Virus record (IMG/VR): IMGVR_UViG_3300047279_000007
Location: 1-29,758 of that record
Length of the DNA: 29,758 bases
DNA from: a virus
Taxonomy: Duplodnaviria > Caudoviricetes
Reading direction: 5' to 3' (one strand)
Shown: positions 1 to 26,447 of the stretch, in pieces
Position numbering within the stretch: the stretch's first letter is position 1
Layout: each line of letters starts with the position of its first letter
Position numbers and translations under genes: made by a program
The notes under the pieces: generated by a model
Databases searched by the model: none
What the model was told of the DNA's origin: nothing
Seen by the model: the letters and a program-made list of their open reading frames with translations, nothing else

Positions 1-660
1 ACTAGCGGGCGTAAATGAGGCGGGGTTGACATTGCCAAATGGAGACTTTGCATTAGCCTCAAACATTTTTGCGCCCGTTGTGGGGTTAAACGCAACATCG
101 CCTTCTTTAAGAATCAAAGGTGCTTTTGGTGCAAGCTGACCCATGTACATATTCATGGCTTGTTGTTGCATACCAGGCGTTTTAAACTCGCCAATCAACG
201 ATGGGTCAATCACGCCCATTGCTTTTGCGGGCGTTGCGGGCATGGTCATTGCACGTTGTTGGTCAGGCTGCATCTGAGCAAATGTTGGCGCAAGGTTTGG
301 ATTATCTTCAAAATCTCGTGCAGTTGGTTCTTGCTTGATTTCAGGCGTAGCCGCTTTGCTTTGCAGACCTTCAATCAATCGTTGGATGTCAGAAGTTGTG
401 TCAGCGCGATATTGCTCGCCCAAGGCTTTTTGCTCTGATTTCAAACCTTCTTGATTCTTGTTTGACAAGTACATTTGAAGCACTTTAGCCAAACCCTGAA
501 CGGGGCTAATTGGGGCTTGAATGCCTTGATATGAACCCGCTTGAATAGGCTCAAATGCTTGCTGTTGCAGAATCTCAGCCATTTTCTGGCGTCGATCCAA
601 CTCCTGTTGTTGCAACTGATAAGGATTAGCAACGCCAAATTGCTCGTATTGATTAGCCAT
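1..660 (-). CDS. Internal virion/ejection protein, partial (runs off left edge)
   Basis: Not in ORF track. ATG at 660 just after the stop of the 920-aa gene; frame open to base 1 (MANQYEQFGVANPYQLQQQELDRRQKMAEILQQQAF...). Q/A/P-rich and placed in the ejection module. Confidence 0.75.
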   Translation of the reverse strand, partial: MANQYEQFGVANPYQLQQQELDRRQKMAEILQQQAFEPIQAGSYQGIQAPISPVQGLAKVLQMYLSNKNQEGLKSEQKALGEQYRADTTSDIQRLIEGLQSKAATPEIKQEPTARDFEDNPNLAPTFAQMQPDQQRAMTMPATPAKAMGVIDPSLIGEFKTPGMQQQAMNMYMGQLAPKAPLILKEGDVAFNPTTGAKMFEANAKSPFGNVNPASFTPAS

Positions 661-664
661 TTTT

Positions 665-3427
665 TTACCCGTTCAATAAACCGTAGTTGACCATTTTGTA
701 ACCGCTTGGGTGCATCAAAACAGCTTCAGGCATGACTTTTTCAACTTCATCTGCCATTACGCCTTGTTGACGTTGACCCAAAATGTCATATTCATACAAA
801 CCGATTCCAAGTTTGTGAGTGCCAATGCGCTCAATGTTTGATTTCAGTCTGCGATCTGAAAGTGCTGCACCCGCAAGGCTAAACAATCCGCTTGTTGTGG
901 CATTAGCACCAGATTGTTGGATGCCATAGTTTTGCATATTAGCCGCACCTTGCGCTTGCGCACCCGCAAAGACAGGGGCGGGGGCAATGTTCGTTGGGTT
1001 GTAACCTTGGAACTGAGGCATCTGCAACTGAGAACCACTCATCAAACCTGTGATTTCATTCAAAGGCTGATTGCGCAATTGAAGTTTGGCTTGCAAATCT
1101 TGCAAAGCCGCATTATTGCTGAACTGCGCACTACCAAGGTTTTGGTTGTACTGCTGAAGTTGTGCGGCATTAGCCAATTGCTGTTGCTGTGCGGCAATAG
1201 CTTGATTTTGAGCAAGCGCTTGATTTTGCGCTGCTTGTGTGTTCATGCCTTGCTGATAATTCTGACCAGCCGCTGCATTTGCAAGTTGTTGGCTTGTCAC
1301 GTTCTGGCCAAAGTTCTGTGCAATTGCTTGGTTTTGTGCCTGTTGTGTGGCCAAAGCATTGTTGAAATTCTGCTGTGTAGCTTGATTTCCAAGTTGCTGA
1401 TTGGTCACATTTTGACCAAAGTTCTGGGCAACGGCTTGATTTGCCAACTGTTGATTTGTCACGTTTTGACCAAAGTTCTGCGCAGCCGCCTGATTTTGAG
1501 CCGCTTGCGTTCCCATACCTTGTTGGTAATTTTGACCAATTGCGGCATTGTAGGCTTGTTGATTTTGCAAACTTTGACCAAAGTTTTGACCAACCGCTGC
1601 GTTATATGCTTGCTGTTGCGCTAATCCTTGAGCTGAATTCTGAGCAATGGCTTGATTGGCGGCTTGTTGGTTTTGCAAGTTTGCACCAAATCCAGACAAT
1701 TGGGCTTGATTGGCAAATTGCGCATTACCTTGAGCTTGCGCGTATTGTTGAGCTTGCGCTTGGTTTGCCGCAGCTTGTTGTTGCAATGCAGTATTTTGGT
1801 TTTGCGCAAGGGCTGCATTTGCCGCATTGGATGCGGTCATGTCCTGACCAAAGTTTTGCGCAACAGCTTGGTTAGCGGCTTGCTGAGATGACATCCCTTG
1901 GCCGTAATTTTGGGCAACTGCTTGATTAGCCGCTTGTTGAGCAGACATAGCTTGACCAAAGTTTTGACCAATAGCTTGGTTTTGCAATTGCTGTGAACTT
2001 AATGCTTGGCCATAATTTTGTGCAATTGCTGCGTTTTGTGCTTGCTGATTTTGCAAATTAACGCCAAAACTTGCCAACTGCGCTTGATTGCCAAATTGAC
2101 CTGATTGCAATTGTTGGTTAAAACCTTGACCTTGAGCCGCGTTTTGAGCTTGTTGAGCAGCCAAAGCATTGCCAAAGTTTTGTTGGATGCCAGTATTTCC
2201 AAATTGACCCGAGGCCAAGGCTTGATTAAAACCTTGTTGATTTGCGGCAGTATCCAAACTAATGCCTTGCAAAGCCGCTTGAGTCAACAAGTCATTTTGT
2301 TGCTGACTTTGATCTCGCATAGCATTGGTATATGCCTCGCCGCCCGCCACTAAACCTTGGTTAGCCAAGTTTTGAGCATTAGCTTTTTGCTGACGTTCCA
2401 ATTGGGGGGCAAGGCGCGACATAATTGCCGCTTGACCTGTAGTTCCCGCATTAACAGGCATTTGCGCAACATTGCTCAAATTTAATTGGTTGTTAGCAAG
2501 GTAATTATTAGCGTTTAAGTTTTGGTTAATTTGGCCAATATTGTTAAGCGATGTTTGTAAATTGACACCTCCAACGCCTCCTTGAGCCAATCCATATTTT
2601 TCAGAATTTACACTTCCAGCCGATCCAAATTGATCTCCCCCAACATTTCCTTGAGCTAAACCATATTGATCTGCCGCAACACTTCCTTGAGCTTGTCCAT
2701 ACTGATTTGCACCAATTGATGAAGCAGAACCATAACCGCCCAAATCAGGGCCACCTTGCACAGTTCCATAATTGCCATAGTTTTGTTGCAGACTTGGGCC
2801 TGTTACACCACCAGTTGCTGTTCCACCTTGGAAGTTACCTCTAGCAGTCCCTCCATATACGCCACCAACAGCTTGGCCACCTTGGAAATTTGCACTAGCT
2901 TGGGGATTAGCAACAGAACCATACGCTGTGCCACTATCAACAGAGCCATACGCTTGGCCACTTTGGGCATTACCCATTGCTGTGCCGCCAGTAACATTAC
3001 CAACAGCCTTGTCGCCTGTAAATCCACCATTAGCCGATCCCATTGCAGCTAGATCAGGCGAGCCTTGGATTTTTCCAGAATCAGCAAGCGAAAAAATGCC
3101 CGCTGGCCCTGTATATTGAAATGGCGTGCCAATAATCTTTGATGCACTAGCAAGACCTTGTTCGCCAAGGTTTGCCATTCCTTGTTGCACTCGTTGCTGT
3201 GATTCCAACGTGCTTTGTGCCGTTGGTGTCAAGTTTTGAGTAATCGTTGGCTGATTTGTTACAGGATCAAACGTAACAGTTTGGCCACCCAACGGGCCAT
3301 TGATGTTGGGGTTGTTTAAATAACCTTGCGTGATCGCTGTATCTTTGTTTGCTACGCCTTGAGCAGTAGCGGCAGCAGCATAATCAGGCGTTGCGGGCGC
3401 AGATGGTTGAGGGCATAAGAAAGCCAT
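665..3427 (-). CDS. Q/N/G-rich repetitive ejection/DNA-pilot-like protein with C-terminal peptidase S74-like (intramolecular chaperone) domain
   Basis: 920 aa with AAGGA RBS. Exact 18-aa periodicity from residue 400 to 778; 9-12-aa Gly-rich repeats at 112-320; SDRRLKSNI...GVMADEV...VNY at the C-terminus; follows tail hub and GNAT. Confidence 0.75.
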   Translation of the reverse strand: MAFLCPQPSAPATPDYAAAATAQGVANKDTAITQGYLNNPNINGPLGGQTVTFDPVTNQPTITQNLTPTAQSTLESQQRVQQGMANLGEQGLASASKIIGTPFQYTGPAGIFSLADSGKIQGSPDLAAMGSANGGFTGDKAVGNVTGGTAMGNAQSGQAYGSVDSGTAYGSVANPQASANFQGGQAVGGVYGGTARGNFQGGTATGGVTGPSLQQNYGNYGTVQGGPDLGGYGSASSIGANQYGQAQGSVAADQYGLAQGNVGGDQFGSAGSVNSEKYGLAQGGVGGVNLQTSLNNIGQINQNLNANNYLANNQLNLSNVAQMPVNAGTTGQAAIMSRLAPQLERQQKANAQNLANQGLVAGGEAYTNAMRDQSQQQNDLLTQAALQGISLDTAANQQGFNQALASGQFGNTGIQQNFGNALAAQQAQNAAQGQGFNQQLQSGQFGNQAQLASFGVNLQNQQAQNAAIAQNYGQALSSQQLQNQAIGQNFGQAMSAQQAANQAVAQNYGQGMSSQQAANQAVAQNFGQDMTASNAANAALAQNQNTALQQQAAANQAQAQQYAQAQGNAQFANQAQLSGFGANLQNQQAANQAIAQNSAQGLAQQQAYNAAVGQNFGQSLQNQQAYNAAIGQNYQQGMGTQAAQNQAAAQNFGQNVTNQQLANQAVAQNFGQNVTNQQLGNQATQQNFNNALATQQAQNQAIAQNFGQNVTSQQLANAAAGQNYQQGMNTQAAQNQALAQNQAIAAQQQQLANAAQLQQYNQNLGSAQFSNNAALQDLQAKLQLRNQPLNEITGLMSGSQLQMPQFQGYNPTNIAPAPVFAGAQAQGAANMQNYGIQQSGANATTSGLFSLAGAALSDRRLKSNIERIGTHKLGIGLYEYDILGQRQQGVMADEVEKVMPEAVLMHPSGYKMVNYGLLNG
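1088..2245 (-). repeat. About 21 tandem 54-bp/18-aa coding repeats (consensus roughly AQNFGQxxxxQQxxNQAx)
   Basis: Anchor residues F400, F418, F436, F454, Y472, F490, Y508, F526, Q544, Y562, F580, S598, F616, Y634, F652, F670, F688, F706, Y724, Q742, Y760 are exactly 18 apart. Confidence 0.9.
2468..3094 (-). repeat. Gly-rich 9-12-aa coding repeats (GxAxGxV/FxG)
   Basis: Nine consecutive 9-mers GSANGGFTG, DKAVGNVTG, GTAMGNAQS, GQAYGSVDS, GTAYGSVAN, PQASANFQG, GQAVGGVYG, GTARGNFQG, GTATGGVTG, flanked by longer 10-12-aa units. Confidence 0.85.
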
Positions 3428-3429
3428 GT

Positions 3430-3867
3430 TTATTCCTTAAATTCGTATGTTTCGCCTGATGGCTCATAGTTTGCTCTTTCAAGCAAAACACTCAAATCTT
3501 GATTTTTCTTGTGGCTAATCATGATTTGGCTAACACCATTAACTTTGAGCATTTGACCTGCTAATTTGAGCAGTTTGCAAATTCCAAGACCGCCTCGGTG
3601 TTCAGGCAGTACATAGTAGAAAACGTCTAGTGCTTGCATTGCGCCATAGAAAGGCGATCTGAACACCATAAAACCCGCATGGCCCGCTAGTTCACCTGTT
3701 TCGGTGCGCAAGGTAAAGTATGCAAAGTTGCCTGTTCTTTCTAGTTCAATCATGCCACCTAAATCGCTTTTCAGGTTGGCATTACCATAAAGTTCAGTCC
3801 AATGTTTGCCAATAAGCACAACGGCTTCGGCTGAAACATCTGCAAATCTTTCCATCTTTGCGTTCAT
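3430..3867 (-). CDS. GNAT-family acetyltransferase-like protein in the virion module
   Basis: ATG at 3867 overlaps the upstream stop (ATGA). Motif-A-like YYVLPEHRGGLGICKLL; typical podovirus position between tail hub and internal proteins. Confidence 0.75.
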   Translation of the reverse strand: MNAKMERFADVSAEAVVLIGKHWTELYGNANLKSDLGGMIELERTGNFAYFTLRTETGELAGHAGFMVFRSPFYGAMQALDVFYYVLPEHRGGLGICKLLKLAGQMLKVNGVSQIMISHKKNQDLSVLLERANYEPSGETYEFKE

Positions 3868-5408
3868 ATACCAGCCCATCCTTGTTGGAAAACCACATCG
3901 GTTGAGGCCCACTCAATTTGCAGACCCTGTGATGCTGATTTTAACTGAATACCCGCGCAGTATCCAATGCCAGTTACGCCTTGCCAGTTGTTTGTGATAA
4001 TTGTGCCGCCCGCCCACAATGCGTTGTCCCACAAAGATGTGTCCCACAAACCATAGGTAGTTGGGCTAAAGTTCAAACTTCCTGTTGTGTCTGAAACGTC
4101 AAAATCGACATTCATACCAACCAAAATCGCGGGCGTTCCATCGGTGAAAATAGATGGTCTTGCTCGGGTAAAGTATTTCTTTACGCCACGGCTTTCATAA
4201 TAGTTAAACGCTTGCAACGCAACAGCATTGATGTCGTTTACATCGTCAACATAGCCATCCCACGCCAAACCAACAAAGCCATTACCGCCAAAGTATGGAT
4301 CATCGTTAAATGTCTCCCAACAGTTAGCGCCCCATCCTGTAAACCTTGTCCATGACTTTGTAATGGTGTTCATCACAAACTGCTCTTGCACACCAGCGCC
4401 AACAGGCACATTGATCCACAAAGCATTGTTTTTGGCGTGATAAAGCAAAGCCCAACCAAATGAGTTTTGGTATAGCGTTGTCGCCTCAGTAATAGCGCCC
4501 TGAATCTTGTCAGACAAATTGACCCTTGGGTCAAGTCGGCTTGATTGCAACGCTGAAGCCAATGGCAACAAACCGTCCAAACTCAAAATCAATAGGTCGC
4601 CACCATACTTATACAAACAACGCCTAGAAACGGGCGCACCGAGCTTCCAAACGCCCGCTAAAGCCCATGTGCTTGCTGAGGCGGGGTCTGTGCCTCGATA
4701 GACAATAATCTCGCCCTGAGACGTCACAAACACAAGGTTATCGTCAACGCCATAACCTGCATCAATTGTCCATGCGCTAACAGAAACAATGTAGCCACCC
4801 ATTCGGGCAATGGAACTCAAGTCTAGAACTTGTGCTTCACCACCAACTGAGTTAGTCGGCAAATACCATGCTTTCAGGCTTTCTTTTTCAATAAACCACA
4901 CGCGATTCTTAAACAACGTGACATTGTTTAATTTGTTTGTGGTTACGCCTGTGATTGCAATGGGTGAGCTTGATCCGTTAATGCTTGCCCATGTTGAGCC
5001 GTTGTACAGTAAAGGGTCATCAACACCATTGCAAGCGTACAGAAAGCTACCACCAGCCGTTGTGACGTTAATATGCTCAAAACGGCTGTTTGATAGCCCT
5101 GTTTTTTCAGCAGCACCAACAGCACCCTTGGTTGTGCAATTGTAGATTTTGCCATCAGCAATACCAAACAACTTACTTACAGAGCCAGTCTCGTAAGCCA
5201 TGATGGTTTCAACTTGGCCTGTGATACCTGTTGACCATTTGCTGTACCCACCGCGCAAATTCACACTTGAAACAGTTGGAAAGAAATTGGTCATTGTCAC
5301 CGCATCAGTTGGTGACATATTGGCCAATGAATCGCGCACGTTCCAGCCGCCAACGGGCGCAGGAATACTCGCTACATTAGCGGCAGTTCTTTGGGCGATT
5401 TTTGGCAT
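3864..5408 (-). CDS. Tail hub/nozzle (P22 gp10 / tail tubular B-like)
   Basis: 514 aa, beta-rich; N-terminal PAPVGGWN, FKNRVWF motif; follows the adaptor gene. Confidence 0.7.
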   Translation of the reverse strand: MPKIAQRTAANVASIPAPVGGWNVRDSLANMSPTDAVTMTNFFPTVSSVNLRGGYSKWSTGITGQVETIMAYETGSVSKLFGIADGKIYNCTTKGAVGAAEKTGLSNSRFEHINVTTAGGSFLYACNGVDDPLLYNGSTWASINGSSSPIAITGVTTNKLNNVTLFKNRVWFIEKESLKAWYLPTNSVGGEAQVLDLSSIARMGGYIVSVSAWTIDAGYGVDDNLVFVTSQGEIIVYRGTDPASASTWALAGVWKLGAPVSRRCLYKYGGDLLILSLDGLLPLASALQSSRLDPRVNLSDKIQGAITEATTLYQNSFGWALLYHAKNNALWINVPVGAGVQEQFVMNTITKSWTRFTGWGANCWETFNDDPYFGGNGFVGLAWDGYVDDVNDINAVALQAFNYYESRGVKKYFTRARPSIFTDGTPAILVGMNVDFDVSDTTGSLNFSPTTYGLWDTSLWDNALWAGGTIITNNWQGVTGIGYCAGIQLKSASQGLQIEWASTDVVFQQGWAGI

Positions 5409-17752: not shown

Positions 17753-18079
17753 TTAGTATATAGGAATTGGGATTTCTTTGGGCCATTGATTGTTTTCAAC
17801 CAAGTTATCCACAGTCCTTTGATGCGCTTTTAACCACATTTCCTTGCGTTCCTCTTTTGTCAGGTGCGCACCTTGGTCAATCGTGTAATGGCACTTTAAA
17901 CAGAGTGCCGCCACATATTCATCGCTTGATTTTAGGGACTTTCCTTTGCCACCCCATTCAGCCCAGTTGCTGTGAGCCGCTTGGACACCATTGTCCATCC
18001 CACAACATTGACAAGGTAAGCTGGCCACCAATTTCAATAGCTTTTGGCTTCGGATGTAGGTTTGTTTAGGAAACATCAT
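17753..18079 (-). CDS. DUF968/Ref-like Zn-binding HNH-type nuclease
   Basis: PCQCCG...AAH...LCLKCH motifs; nin-region position. Confidence 0.7.
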   Translation of the reverse strand: MMFPKQTYIRSQKLLKLVASLPCQCCGMDNGVQAAHSNWAEWGGKGKSLKSSDEYVAALCLKCHYTIDQGAHLTKEERKEMWLKAHQRTVDNLVENNQWPKEIPIPIY

Positions 18080-21447: not shown

Positions 21448-21629
21448 TGATTGAACACATCAAAGAATACTGGCGTATGCCATCGCCAAAAGAGTTAGCA
21501 GCCAAAGAACTTGAAATGGCGCAACGCAAGCTGTTAGAGGCTCTTAGCGCACAGGAATATGCAAAGCGCATGGCTGACTATCACTCAGACCGAATCAAAC
21601 GCCTCACGGCTTATTTAAAGGACGAATAA
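21444..21629 (+). CDS. Hypothetical coiled-coil early protein
   Basis: GGAG RBS, ATG at 21444; PSPKELAAKELEMAQRKLL. Confidence 0.6.
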   Translation: MMIEHIKEYWRMPSPKELAAKELEMAQRKLLEALSAQEYAKRMADYHSDRIKRLTAYLKDE

Positions 21630-22237
21630 TGAAAGTTTATCAAGCAATTAACGCCATTCAATCAGATTTAGCCAAGATCGGCATTTCCAAAGACCGCGTG
21701 AACTCTCAAGGCTCTGGATACAAATTTCGCGGCATTGACGATGTGTATAACGCAATTAGCCCATTGTTGGCAAAACATGGTTTGTGCATTTTGCCCCGTA
21801 TGCTTACCCGTGAATGTACCGACAGAATTAGCGCCAAGGGCGGCAACCTGTTTTATGTGGTTGTGGAAGCAGAGTTTGACTTTGTAAGCGCAGAAGATGG
21901 TTCTAAACACACGGTTAAGACTTTTGGCGAGGCAATGGATAGCGGAGACAAGGCAACCAACAAAGCCATGTCAGCCGCTTATAAATACGCTGCATTCCAA
22001 GCGTTTGCCATTCCCACAGAGGGCGACAATGATGCTGATGCCTACACGCACGATGTTGCACCAACAAGCATTGATCCTAACAGCATGACAGATTTGTTTG
22101 CGGCCATTGAATCAGCCACCACAGAAGATGATTTAAAGATTGCTTACAAAATCGCGTATGCCGCTTGCGATAACAACAAGTTTTGGCAACTCAAAGTTAT
22201 TGCAGCCAAAGATGAAGCAAAGGCAAAATTAAAATGA
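21629..22237 (+). CDS. erf: ERF-family ssDNA annealing protein
   Basis: YKFRGIDDVYN and GEAMDSGDKATNKAMSAAYKYA...F.IP motifs. Confidence 0.85.
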   Translation: MKVYQAINAIQSDLAKIGISKDRVNSQGSGYKFRGIDDVYNAISPLLAKHGLCILPRMLTRECTDRISAKGGNLFYVVVEAEFDFVSAEDGSKHTVKTFGEAMDSGDKATNKAMSAAYKYAAFQAFAIPTEGDNDADAYTHDVAPTSIDPNSMTDLFAAIESATTEDDLKIAYKIAYAACDNNKFWQLKVIAAKDEAKAKLK

Positions 22238-22857
22238 TTGAAATTGTCCAAGGCACAAACGAATGGTTTGCGGCTCGGCTTGGTAAGGTCACAGCATCCC
22301 GTGTGGCTGATGTGCTTGCCAAAACCAAATCAGGCTACTCAGCCAGTCGTGACAATTACATGGCTCAGTTGGTGTGTGAACGCCTGACAAACCAAAAGGC
22401 TGAAAGTTTTACTAACGCTGCTATGGCTCATGGCGTAGAAACAGAGCCACTTGCCAGAGCCGCATATGAGGCGCTTAAAGACGTTTTAGTTGATGAAGTG
22501 GGGTTTGTGCCTCACCCAACGATTGAAATGGCTGGTGCGTCTCCTGACGGGCTTGTTGGCGATGATGGATTGATCGAATGCAAATGCCCCCAGACAAATA
22601 CACATATTGAGACTTTATTAACTCAATCTGTGCCAACAAAATATTACACCCAGATGCAATTTCAACTTGCGTGTACTGGTAGGCAGTATTGCGATTTCGT
22701 TAGTTTCGATAATCGCCTACCAACAGAACTTCAATTGTTTGTGAAGCGAGTCCCAAGGGATGAAACTTACATCAAGCTAATGGAAGCAGAAATCGTCAAA
22801 TTCCTTGCTGAACTAAACGACAAAATTAACAAACTTATGAAAGTCAAAAATGTCTAA
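22234..22857 (+). CDS. YqaJ/lambda-exonuclease family protein
   Basis: QGTNEWFAARLGKVTAS, GASPDG, ECKCP and QMQFQL motifs. Confidence 0.92.
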   Translation: MIEIVQGTNEWFAARLGKVTASRVADVLAKTKSGYSASRDNYMAQLVCERLTNQKAESFTNAAMAHGVETEPLARAAYEALKDVLVDEVGFVPHPTIEMAGASPDGLVGDDGLIECKCPQTNTHIETLLTQSVPTKYYTQMQFQLACTGRQYCDFVSFDNRLPTELQLFVKRVPRDETYIKLMEAEIVKFLAELNDKINKLMKVKNV

Positions 22858-24013: not shown

Positions 24014-24186
24014 CACCAATATCAGAACCACGGCAACTTCACCCTTATAAAACTTGCGGAAAATGCGATGAAAGCAAACCACCAGAGGGCGGCATTGATA
24101 TGGGGCATAGATGGATATGTCAGTCCTGTTGGATAATGCGTCTGACAGGCAAACACTTACGTCAAAACTCAGCCAAGAACAGCTAA
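24010..24186 (+). CDS. Small zinc-finger protein (58 aa)
   Basis: Below ORF-track cutoff; ATGA-coupled; CGKC...WICQSC. Confidence 0.65.
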   Translation: MTPISEPRQLHPYKTCGKCDESKPPEGGIDMGHRWICQSCWIMRLTGKHLRQNSAKNS

Positions 24187-24765
24187 AGCCTCATTGGTGT
24201 GCAAGACCCGATCATCAAATCCAATCGTGCCACCATTGATCTTCTTTGTTAGACCTAACCAGTCTGCCGCTTCAGCCAAGTTATTGCAGTTGTGTGTTGA
24301 CCAAAACCATCCAGCCGTAAGTGCCGCATATTGAGGCGTTGCCACCAAGTCAGGATTAGCCCAAAAGTCCACGCCAAGGGCTTTTCCTGCATGGAAATAC
24401 GAGTCTGAGCCAGTTAGCTGAACGCAGCCTCTGCCCCTGAAACGATACCCGTCACCTGATGCTTCGTCCCTGTTGCCCATGCGTGAGGCATAGACCTTGT
24501 TGGCGATCTTTTGTGGTTTGCCTGCATACTCATTTGCAATGTCTAATGTGGGAAACCGTTTAGACCACAATTTCATCAGCGTTGCCGCACGATAGTTCAG
24601 GTTTTCCTCAAGCACTTTAAACTTGCCACATTCATGGCCGCATTGACCAATAAATGCTGCTTGTTGGCGAGGCGTATTGATGCCAAACCGATCAAATGTC
24701 TGGTTTAAGGCATCTACCCATTGTGAGCCAATTTTTAACTTGGCAAGTTGGTCAGCGTTTACCAT
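24169..24765 (-). CDS. Endolysin, glycoside hydrolase family 19
   Basis: AAFIGQCGHEC, EENLNY, GDGYRFRGRGCVQLTG and INGG motifs. Confidence 0.92.
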   Translation of the reverse strand: MVNADQLAKLKIGSQWVDALNQTFDRFGINTPRQQAAFIGQCGHECGKFKVLEENLNYRAATLMKLWSKRFPTLDIANEYAGKPQKIANKVYASRMGNRDEASGDGYRFRGRGCVQLTGSDSYFHAGKALGVDFWANPDLVATPQYAALTAGWFWSTHNCNNLAEAADWLGLTKKINGGTIGFDDRVLHTNEALAVLG

Positions 24766-25734: not shown

Positions 25735-25915
25735 TTTTCTTCTCCAGAATAGGGGCGACAAGGTATTCAGGACACATCTGAGTAAACAAACAACGAGGCT
25801 TCTGACAATCAGGTTTGTAAAAGTTATCAGGATCCTGACATTTATATCGATACCTGTCTTGAAAACATCCTGACAAAAATAATCCAACAATTAAAGCCAG
25901 AATAATGTGTTTCAT
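25694..25915 (-). CDS. Cys-rich lipoprotein
   Basis: Lipobox LSG-C; DRYRYKCQDP...C..P.C.....CP. Confidence 0.7.
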   Translation of the reverse strand: MKHIILALIVGLFLSGCFQDRYRYKCQDPDNFYKPDCQKPRCLFTQMCPEYLVAPILEKKIESPQVPDTNIQK

Positions 25916-26418
25916 TGTTTTATGTGATGTGTAAAAAGTTCATTTTCAGCGGCTTGCCTTGCAATAATCGCTTCTTGCATTGTTGCGTAATATCCCAAAT
26001 GTTTTTGCTTGTAATTGTGAGTTATGCAAGCAGACCAAGGTTTTGAAATTAATCTTGATTCAAACCTAACACCACGGAAACCTGATGTATTTTGTTTTGT
26101 TCTAAAAATATTTTCACTATTTTGTTTTTGTGTTGCCAATCTCAAATTAATAGGTCTGTTATCTTCTTTGTCCCGATTAATATGGTCTATCTGCAATAAT
26201 GGTATTGCACCATAAACATACAACCACATCAACCTATGTGCGTAATAATCTTTTTGGTCAAGCCTTATTAAAATATATCCAATCTTTTGTTTTGAACCAG
26301 CTTGTTGACCTTTTTGCGCTTTTCCACCCATTGTGTTGCGCCAAATAAACATACCTTTTTCAGTATCTACCTCTAGCAATTCGCACAAACGCTCTCGTGA
26401 TAAACTAATTTCAGCCAT
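25912..26418 (-). mobile_element. Free-standing HNH homing endonuclease with AP2-like C-terminal domain
   Basis: YYAHRLMW, IDHINRDKEDNRPINLR, NTSGFRGV and HLGYY motifs; AT-rich relative to neighbours; AAAGGA RBS. Confidence 0.85.
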
Positions 26419-26447
26419 TTGATGTCCTTTCATCATTTAGGTTAGAG

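Follow-up and report, generated by a model that had tools for sequence, protein, structure and literature searches.

What keeps two unlike repeat arrays of a single protein chain in step, and what a phage might build from them, are questions raised by a gene of the virus record IMGVR_UViG_3300047279_000007. The whole IMG/VR record, 29,758 bases long and judged 87% complete, was analyzed and is called the window here. At positions 665..3427 its minus strand holds a single open reading frame (ORF) of 920 amino acids (aa) plus stop, whose product (P0001) consists of an N-terminal domain, a glycine-rich N-arm, a central domain, a C-arm of 18-residue repeats, a C-region and a Peptidase_S74 (S74) domain (Table 1). 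An initial annotation of the gene had proposed that the units of the two arms pair in mirror order around the center, in about 21 pairs, and had named joint expansion of the arms in homologues as the deciding test. This expansion is observed, with N- and C-arm counts changing 1:1 in homologues. The preferred reading, to which a probability of roughly one half is assigned, is that this mirrored two-arm virion protein forms an antiparallel strand-on-helix hairpin and acts as the first ejection protein of its phage (the T7 gp14 / P22 gp7 slot), building a tail extension of a length set by its repeats.

Coupled lengths and mirrored order of the two arms

The N-arm, 23% of which is glycine, comprises units of 9 aa (residues 131-211) and of 10-12 aa (residues 212-286) together with two PDL units (~117-130 and ~222-233). 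The unit length of nine assumed earlier thus applies to the zone 131-211, while units elsewhere have 10 or 12 residues. The C-arm contains zero insertions or deletions (indels) across its 21 units and is composed of 28% Gln, 22% Ala and 15% Asn. Its unit follows the consensus Q-N-F/Y-G-Q-x-L/M/V-x-x-Q-Q-A-x-N-Q-A-x-A, in which N14 is present in 21/21 and A16 in 20/21 units. A higher-order repeat is also visible in the C-arm, where QNQ / QQY..AQF / xxFGxNLQNQQ units occur at 542-595, at 740-775 and partly at 434-469; since the matching N-arm segments (the PDL units and PSLQQNY / VNLQTSL) recur too, whole paired 11-unit blocks were duplicated in both arms.

All five residue matches listed in the initial annotation as signs of the mirror correspondence are present where they had been placed. 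The PDL pair (124-126 and 227-229) is 103 aa apart and the QNQ-starting units, at 542 and 740, are 198 aa (11 units) apart; these had been called the only two AQNQ repeats, and they are indeed the only two units beginning with QNQ, although the string AQNQ also occurs within other units. F580 and F454 sit in the two '..FGxNLQNQQ' units, Y562 and F436 in QQY/QGF units, and QAYGSVDSG and TAYGSVANP stand opposite two QNFGQNVTNQQ units, at 668 and 650. The proposed rule that Phe faces Gly also holds, except that the Phe assigned to position 7 occupies position 6 of the 9-mer in the phase used here. When the nine 9-mers (131-211) are laid antiparallel to units 722..578, Phe6 faces the unit Gly6 in 3/3 cases and non-Phe faces non-Gly in 6/6, which by simple arithmetic has a chance of 1/84 for one fixed register. 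Because such residue matches in P0001, taken alone, could still be pattern-seeking, the coupling of the arms was tested in homologues.

The homologue set consisted of the best 120 of 1279 word-indexed matches (529-892 aa) and P0001, giving 121 proteins, and arm lengths were taken as the distances between three anchors located by BLASTP in the N-terminal domain, the central domain and the C-region. The N-domain anchor is conserved in 119/121 homologues, and the same number carried all anchors; P0069 and P0077, which are without the N-terminus, were excluded. In 119/119 proteins the length of the C-arm divides exactly by 18 residues, and the arm ranges from 7 to 21 units. In the close clade (n = 86), N-arm length correlates with unit number at r = 0.94, or at r = 0.997 (slope 9.85 aa per unit) when P0031 and P0048 are left out. 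Here, 7 units are accompanied by 61 N-arm residues, 8 by 72, 10 by 95, 14 by 130-136, 17 by 160-162, 19 by 175-183 and 21 by 199. Among the distant relatives (n = 33), 21 fall on the same line and 12 carry 30-107 additional N-arm residues.

A scan of IMG/VR (72 loci, 65 with all anchors) extends the line from one unit (N-arm of ~1 aa, proteins of 304-396 aa) to 34 units (N-arm of 352 aa, protein of 1311 aa), passing through 31 aa at 4 units, 235 at 24, 278 at 28, 291-292 at 29 and 304 at 30. Furthermore, a HMMER search with the 304-aa minimal form retrieved 2932 representatives of 50%-identity clusters at E <= 0.001. In the best 149 of these, 118 had all anchors, and the insertions in their two arms show a Spearman correlation of 0.95 and a Pearson correlation of 0.66, the latter lowered by large additional inserts in the N-arm of at least seven of them; a C-arm excess occurs in 0 of the 118. 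Over about 300 homologues, spanning 304-1311 aa and 1-34 C-units, 9-12 N-arm residues are added per 18-residue unit. Long-armed forms are abundant in freshwater or marine samples. The extras confined to the N-arm span 30-550 residues and were noted in P0090, P0102, P0103, P0105, P0106 and P0113 as well as in P0157, P0166, P0173, P0206, P0213, P0250 and P0256. In the first six, which were inspected, the extra sequence is charged, non-Gly-rich and non-repeat and lies just after the first PDL unit, as if a domain were looped out of the hairpin.

Mirror order was read from global alignments of close homologues to P0001. Residues 244-267 are deleted together with 461-496 in P0003, and 152-169 together with 663-698 in P0002. 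P0009 lacks 159-167, 188-205 and 258-269 along with 649-666, 596-631 and 482-499, and P0060 lacks 129-231 (103 aa) along with 547-744 (11 units). Insertions are matched as well, with +24 aa at 261 and +2 units at 481 (L016), +20 aa at 148 and +2 units at 703 (L030), +20, +9 and +48 aa and, in reversed order, +2, +1 and +4 units (L068), and +9 and +144 aa with +1 and +12 units (L041). Across 85 close homologues, 67 distinct indel patterns have matched numbers in reversed order, in which 1, 2 and 3 C-units stand opposite N-arm blocks of 9, 18 and 27 aa in the distal zone or of 12, 24 and 35 aa close to the center.

The same order emerges from a multiple regression in which the arms were split at the edge of the 9-mer zone (67 distinct architectures, 125 sequences). 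Here, the N-proximal length equals 10.3 x C-proximal units + 0.6 x C-distal units, and the N-distal length 0.7 x C-proximal + 8.2 x C-distal units; the correlations are 0.91 and 0.90 for antiparallel pairing vs 0.55 and 0.54 for parallel pairing. N-proximal length goes with C-proximal units and N-distal length with C-distal units, and the register is therefore antiparallel. The pairs 124~742, 227~544 and 283~454, at which contacts had been expected, lie near this register, which was derived independently from the co-indels. In 133 aligned homologues the Phe/Gly rule holds at the indel-derived register in 313/318 cells, as opposed to 0.888 for the best of 13 other registers, where the 318 cells come from related sequences and measure conservation, not independent events. 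Column-wise mutual information between the arms (133 sequences) was noisy, with some enrichment of 259-265 with 494-512 and another cluster displaced by about two units, and was not used as evidence.

DNA-level symmetry was considered as a cause of the mirror order and rejected, as no long inverted repeat was found in the DNA of the gene, which has just six short imperfect inverted pairs of 14-24 nucleotides. Because of this, and because assembly collapse of repeats would unbalance the arms, it is most likely from these sequence comparisons that N-unit i pairs directly with C-unit i, counted from the center.

Predicted conformation of the arms and the center

The averaged 18-mer has a hydrophobic period of 4.5 and no power at period 2, and the autocorrelation of the C-arm is 0.213 at lag 6 (background ~0.2) vs 0.44-0.49 at lags 18, 36 and 54. 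A beta-solenoid or left-handed beta-helix reading of the 18-mers was rejected on the missing period-6 and period-2 signals, and a beta-solenoid with rungs common to both arms on the reasoning that chain connectivity argues against it. On a 100-degree wheel drawn by arithmetic, positions 3/7/10/14/17 form a stripe of F/Y, L/M/V, Q, the invariant N and I/V, opposite a small or polar stripe at 1/5/9/12/16 (Q, Q, S/N, A and the near-invariant A). Eighteen residues in five turns correspond to 3.6 residues per turn, as in an unsupercoiled helix, and to ~27 Å. The C-arm would be such an unsupercoiled alpha-helix, with ~27 Å per unit and ~57 nm for 21 units. In diverged relatives, where the anchors are less exact, the C-arm is off multiples of 18 mostly by 7 or 11 residues (83, 47, 115, 191, 97, 61), deviations that would suit coiled-coil periodicities. 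Nine extended residues likewise span ~27 Å, and each N-unit of 9-12 residues would run extended along one C-unit, in which case the N-arm units of 10 and 12 residues must bulge.

An AlphaFold2 monomer model of the 7-unit, 535-aa homologue P0081 has a mean predicted local distance difference test score (pLDDT) of 52, with 61-81 in the N-domain and <50 in the N-arm, and renders, at low confidence, the C-arm as helices and the N-arm as coil. The model of the minimal form reaches a mean pLDDT of 80 (~90 in the N-domain) and a predicted template modeling score (pTM) of 0.45. It contains helices at 14-35, 64-96, 129-154, 162-204, 207-236 and 257-298 and a small sheet at 40-62. Judged from fold-search matches, residues 126-206 of this form are a helical hairpin whose turn is marked by the invariant Gly of 'NQG..G' (G156). 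Given this central helical hairpin, the whole molecule would therefore turn at the same Gly, and the C-arm is modeled as continuing the second helix of the hairpin. With the minimal-form model, Foldseek gave no match to the PDB at E <= 0.001, and a wide VIA-align search reached a best Z of 7.6, all hits being generic helical hairpins.

Gene neighborhood and the Peptidase_S74 domain

On the minus strand of the window, the genes for the large terminase, portal, capsid, a 303-aa tail protein, a 514-aa protein and a 160-aa acetyltransferase-like protein are followed by the 920-aa gene and a gene cut by the end of the record. The capsid protein shares 52% identity with its counterpart in Myxococcus phage Mx8 and 29% with those of Brucella Tb-type phages, and the Mx8/Perisivirus-like capsid and tail module agrees with the short-tailed phage proposed earlier. 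This order recurs in Brucella phage Tb and Rhizobium phage RHph_I3_18, where the gene for a 326-aa 'structural protein' with S74, a minimal form, immediately follows an N-acyltransferase gene. Phages of the Sulfitobacter pCB2047 type carry the minimal form as well. The 160-aa gene holds the position of Brucella phage Tb_22 and of the Rhizobium phage N-acyltransferase gene, and its product gave no match to P22 gp14 in pairwise BLAST. The 'amidase' label (lysis category) that PHROG 5107 lends to the 514-aa protein looks doubtful at a tubular-tail-B position, and Pfam gave no match for this protein.

The cut gene at 1..660 shows 90% identity to the N-terminus of a 537-aa protein in a near-complete relative (L020), which matches phrog_2534 'released from the phage upon host infection'. 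P22 gp20 matches phrog_2534 over the other half of the profile, and the gp20-slot protein is weakly similar to P22 gp20 (E 0.007). Beyond the gp20-like gene, relatives encode a ~680-aa protein and then a mosaic tail-fiber cluster. In two papers by Hardies and co-workers, the standard podoviral order runs from tubular tail B to internal virion protein A (IVP-A; acetyltransferase family, homologous to P22 gene 14) and internal virion protein B (IVP-B; T7 gp14, P22 gp7), and the Mx8/Brucella-phage lineage is placed within this order (PMC4819975, PMC10386132). A Pfam search of the window and of five related genomes, each at least 98% complete, gave no P22_gp7 match. As the podoviral order matches and no P22_gp7 match lies elsewhere in these sequences, the 920-aa protein is assigned to the IVP-B slot.

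Table 1. Positions of the domains of P0001 and of other features of the window.
Feature	Positions	Strand	Remarks
Whole coding sequence of P0001	665..3427	-	920 aa; PHROG 6121 'virion structural protein'
N-terminal domain, residues 1-100	3128..3427	-	helix, beta-hairpin, long helix in models
N-arm, residues 101-299	2531..3127	-	Gly-rich units; length tracks C-unit count
Central domain, residues 300-397	2237..2530	-	anchor, 77-99% identity in close clade
C-arm, residues 398-775	1103..2236	-	21 exact 18-residue units, Q/N/A-rich
C-region, residues 776-856	860..1102	-	conserved RNQPLNEITGLMSGSQ stretch and Gly/Ala-rich hydrophobic tail
Peptidase_S74 domain, residues 857-920	668..859	-	Pfam PF13884; begins SDRRLKSNI
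gp20-slot ejection protein, first 220 aa	1..660	-	cut by record end
Acetyltransferase-like protein, IVP-A slot, 160 aa	3430..3912	-	phrog_1249, E 8e-8
514-aa protein, tubular-tail-B slot	3864..5408	-	PHROG 5107 'amidase', E 1e-130; slot by synteny with Tb_21 and Rhizobium phage 'neck protein'
Portal, 780 aa	11035-13377	-	best PHROG portal-profile stretch (best of two) covers residues 7-490
Two HNH endonuclease genes	17753-18079, 25912-26436	-	PHROG 131; Pfam HNH_3
ERF single-strand annealing protein and YqaJ-type exonuclease	21629-22857	+	opposite strand to structural genes
GH19 (chitinase class I-like) probable endolysin	24169-24765	-	

PHROG 6121 matches P0001 at E 4.1e-45 for the whole protein, in three stretches of which the best covers residues 694-918. 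The profile was matched by 30/30 diverse family members over ~6-387 of its 392 positions, and by Brucella phage Tb_23 at 2e-137. In contrast, phmmer found 0 matches to P0001 among PDB sequences at E <= 1, and S74 is the sole Pfam domain matched in the protein.

This C-terminal domain had not been recognized in the initial annotation. PF13884 matches residues 857-904 at E 1.1e-6 (29.3 bits vs a cut-off of 22), and SDRRLK at 857-862 fits S-D-x-R-x-K, which we take to be the autoproteolytic motif of Peptidase_S74; its Ser, Asp and Lys are invariant in a 97-row homologue alignment. Peptidase_S74 domains self-cleave at Ser and are typical of external trimeric fibers and spikes. By analogy, the predicted domain is expected to self-cleave at the Ser857 motif, and the Gly/Ala-rich hydrophobic tail (..TSGLFSLAGAAL) immediately precedes this predicted cleavage site. 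The motif was found in 27/103 representatives by a regular expression that misses at least one, and about three quarters are without S74. Such forms (including L054, L069, L073 and L074-L076) have a Gly/Ala/Leu-rich tail that often ends in a terminal Phe, Tyr or Trp; where S74 is present, the cleavage Ser is often preceded by Phe, Tyr, Trp or Met. Secondary PHROG matches to tail-fiber families run solely through the C-terminal domain. Of the family members, 8/30, all of them S74-bearing, also match PHROG 4287 'DNA ejection protein'. In other podoviruses, S74-like ends are seen in a protein annotated as 'internal virion protein D' and, in a Vibrio phage, in a 'DNA injection protein'.

Several observations concern the remainder of these genomes. 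The fiber region of relatives is mosaic, with a conserved N-terminal ~150 aa joined to C-terminal parts of 90-780 aa, some with endings that resemble S74-type chaperone ends, and the region L020:16109-21085 holds four paralogous ~290-aa genes with Pfam Gly_rich_2. Direct terminal repeats occur in two of the five near-complete related genomes. In the window, the portal has a long C-terminal extension outside the best profile stretch, possibly a barrel as in P22. One of the HNH genes lies among replication and recombination genes and the other near the lysis and late region.

Possible roles of the two-armed protein

The closest comparison is offered by P22 gp7. In a 2026 preprint on P22, the gp7* chain is reported to fold back and to contribute two helices per copy to a 24-helix bundle. 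Its turn (the 'fingertip') fits between gp10 subunits in the hub, and 12 copies form an extracellular channel across the ~6 nm gap to the outer membrane, held by many Gln/Asn hydrogen bonds and with a V-shaped C-terminus in the membrane (10.64898/2026.09.03.749273). The repeat protein occupies the same slot as P22 gp7 and T7 gp14, after IVP-A and before a gp20/gp15-like gene, and its family shares with gp7 a helical-hairpin center (in the model), Q/N-rich arms and a Gly/Ala-rich tail, in what would be the same layout of arm, turn, arm and membrane-seeking tail. The gp7 consensus ends in '..GLGLLGSLF', Gly-rich and hydrophobic like the tails of the repeat-protein family. However, both arms of gp7 are helices, whereas here they are repeat arrays of 1-34 units in which 9-12 residues face 18; the family further has an extra N-domain, and about a quarter of its members carry S74. 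Membership in the P22 gp7 family was rejected: PF25688 (P22 gp7) gave no Pfam match at E <= 10 for P0001 or seven short homologues, hhalign against P22 gp7 returned probabilities of 0.25% and 0.36% (<1%), and the size of 304-1311 aa departs from 181-240 aa. An Atlas feature-based (language-model) search placed a P22_gp7-bearing cluster at rank 29, with a score of 0.94 and 180 common features, and is regarded as a lead only.

Other systems share single aspects of the design. Chemoreceptor cytoplasmic hairpins and SMC/Rad50 arms are antiparallel coiled coils with matched mirrored indels and helical arms of equal length, with heptads on either side. The repeat protein resembles them in the matched mirrored indels of two arms of one chain and differs in its explicit repeats and its Gly-rich, non-helical (modeled as coil) N-arm, which has 8.2-10.3 residues per 18-residue unit and uses half to two thirds of the residue number of the helical arm. 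Class I fusion proteins in the post-fusion state (influenza HA2) are trimers of hairpins with an outer layer of partly extended chain; a central coiled coil, an antiparallel outer chain and an adjacent Gly/Ala-rich hydrophobic peptide would be common to both, and S74 implies trimers. Here, the hydrophobic peptide is C-terminal (chain order reversed) and there is no homology. The protein resembles tape measure proteins in being a largely helical virion protein with repeats, of a length that would determine how long a tail structure becomes, but a tape is a single extended chain in a pre-built tail, whereas this would be a paired hairpin yielding a structure only after ejection. The phiX174 H protein is similar as a helical, Gln/Asn-rich phage protein proposed as a conduit, but its tube is a parallel coiled coil of ten chains in which no arm folds back, and no likeness in sequence or fold supports the comparison here. 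Endosialidase and tail-fiber chaperones of the Peptidase_S74 type share the C-terminal domain and its S-D-x-R-x-K start, but here there is no recognizable triple beta-helix or fiber shaft, the gene lies in the ejection block and the domain is optional.

In the preferred reading as an ejection protein, the central helical hairpin would be the turn and, much as the 'fingertip' of gp7 does, would attach to the tail hub. At the far end, where the tail would reach the outer membrane, the N-domain would lie beside the Gly/Ala-rich C-tail released by self-cleavage of S74, and several hairpins would assemble into a channel after ejection. Adding one unit to each arm would lengthen the stalk. A more specific version is tentative and on balance rather doubtful, namely that the tail of these podoviruses is genetically length-programmed and built only at infection, with stored hairpins forming under the hub a channel of ~3 to ~90 nm, as determined by the number of paired strand/helix units, and S74 unmasking a membrane-seeking C-tail. 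If true, the protein would be a tape measure for a post-ejection tail. As a bolder sub-reading, the N-arm might do mechanical work, as in a class I fusion protein, when it zips onto C-arms joined in a trimeric coiled coil.

Several points weigh against a role as a hairpin-forming ejection protein. The first ejected protein of P22 and T7 is small and of fixed size, 181-240 aa (PMC8954989), whereas this family spans 304-1311 aa against a constant ~180-240 aa in the gp14/gp7 class, and sequence homology to P22 gp7 is absent by both Pfam and hhalign. The minimal-form model aligned to the T7 entries 8e4g_a (Z 7.3, 70 residues) and 7ey7_A (Z 7.1, 97 residues), chains presumed from length and entry titles to be T7 gp14, and unrelated helical hairpins score alike. 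In the P0081 model the arms have a pLDDT of 28-48 and show no confident packing. The two downstream ejection-slot proteins stay near-constant in length while the repeat protein spans 1-34 units. The trimer-fiber role of S74 must be reconciled with a conduit, and a channel of 6 or 12 copies is unlike what S74 is known to fold. Furthermore, a rigid rod of 57-92 nm would not fit a T=7-size head, and a 30-fold length range is not accounted for by envelope width. Finally, the arms are not balanced everywhere. Additional non-repeat N-arm sequence is found in 12/33 distant-clade proteins and at least 7/118 representatives, and P0031 (17 units, 102 aa), P0048 (8 units, 175 aa) and L044:2624-4426 (11 units, 162 aa) depart from the common line. 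Each of these three comes from one short contig, L044 being a partial ORF, and they could reflect assembly repeat collapse or real intermediates of paired gain and loss.

The strongest rival, though unlikely, makes the protein an external trimeric fiber or central tail needle, in which S74-trimerized C-arms form a three-stranded unsupercoiled coiled coil with the N-arms laid back as a trimer of hairpins, the N-domain sits on the tail, the central domain is the distal host-touching tip, and the repeats tune the reach through capsule or S-layer. The mirrored co-variation suits such a trimer of hairpins as well as it suits a channel, lengths vary as strongly as those of host-range determinants, and the S74 match lies above the Pfam cut-off with its Ser/Lys motif conserved. 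The secondary PHROG matches to tail-fiber families would fit as well, but they are confined to the S74 end, and about three quarters of the representatives are without this domain and end in a Gly/Ala-rich hydrophobic tail. A hub of the P22 type also has to be plugged, and the interval between the genes in the tubeB and IVP-A slots contains no gp26-like needle gene. Identity with a P22 gp26-type trimeric needle was rejected by position, since such a gene lies between tubeB gp10 and IVP-A gp14 and the present one instead follows the acetyltransferase-like gene. This location after IVP-A within the ejection block, with the fiber genes in a separate downstream mosaic cluster, and the 304-aa minimal forms, which have no shaft, both argue against a fiber. 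The location within the internal-virion-protein block could also speak for an internal head or core protein, such as an axial core, spool, pressure or volume filler or portal-channel plug, that forms no conduit. In Brucella phage Tb the homologue carries the annotation 'structural protein', and related genomes of 32-35 kb in a P22/Mx8-type capsid may leave head volume for protein. This role is rather improbable. A filler would not need unit-specific mirrored pairing, the hydrophobic Gly-rich C-tail, of the same type as in gp7, suggests membrane contact, and genomes are not clearly smaller where the protein is longer, although there are only five genomes for this comparison (L020, L040, L057, L010 and L072, at least 98% complete), with 32.1-32.9 kb at 17-30 units vs 33.8-35.1 kb at 1 unit.

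It is very improbable that the arms never touch and that their lengths are matched through a third variable-length partner, linked recombination or an assembly artifact. The P0081 monomer model gives no confident packing of the arms, metagenome assemblies can mis-assemble repeats, and the counted cells are phylogenetically related. However, an assembly error that collapses repeats would put the arms out of balance instead of matching them, and may be the origin of the three unbalanced sequences. The coupling is seen in two collections with over 250 contig-derived sequences in all, and across clusters below 50% identity. The neighboring ejection-slot proteins are constant in length, and fiber length does not follow unit number consistently (308-363 aa at 29-30 units vs 827-933 aa at 21-24). 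A third partner would, moreover, explain neither the reverse order nor the Phe/Gly pairing, and the DNA holds no long inverted repeat.

Hairpin ejection proteins are already known, as are stalks with mirrored indels. For a repeat-built strand-against-helix hairpin such as the one proposed here, which would keep its register from 1 to 34 units among thousands of family members, a literature search covering podovirus papers found no published description. For P22 and T7, the way in which short-tailed phages span the distance from tail tip to cytoplasm is just beginning to be worked out. A natural allelic series of 1-34 units is available here in phages with >80% identity in the flanking domains, which makes it testable how rod or channel length relates to unit number and which host feature it tracks. 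The arms are kept in step by selection across a 30-fold length variation, and two co-evolving, non-identical arrays of 9-12 vs 18 residues may constitute a strand-on-helix pairing code of use for protein design and structure prediction.

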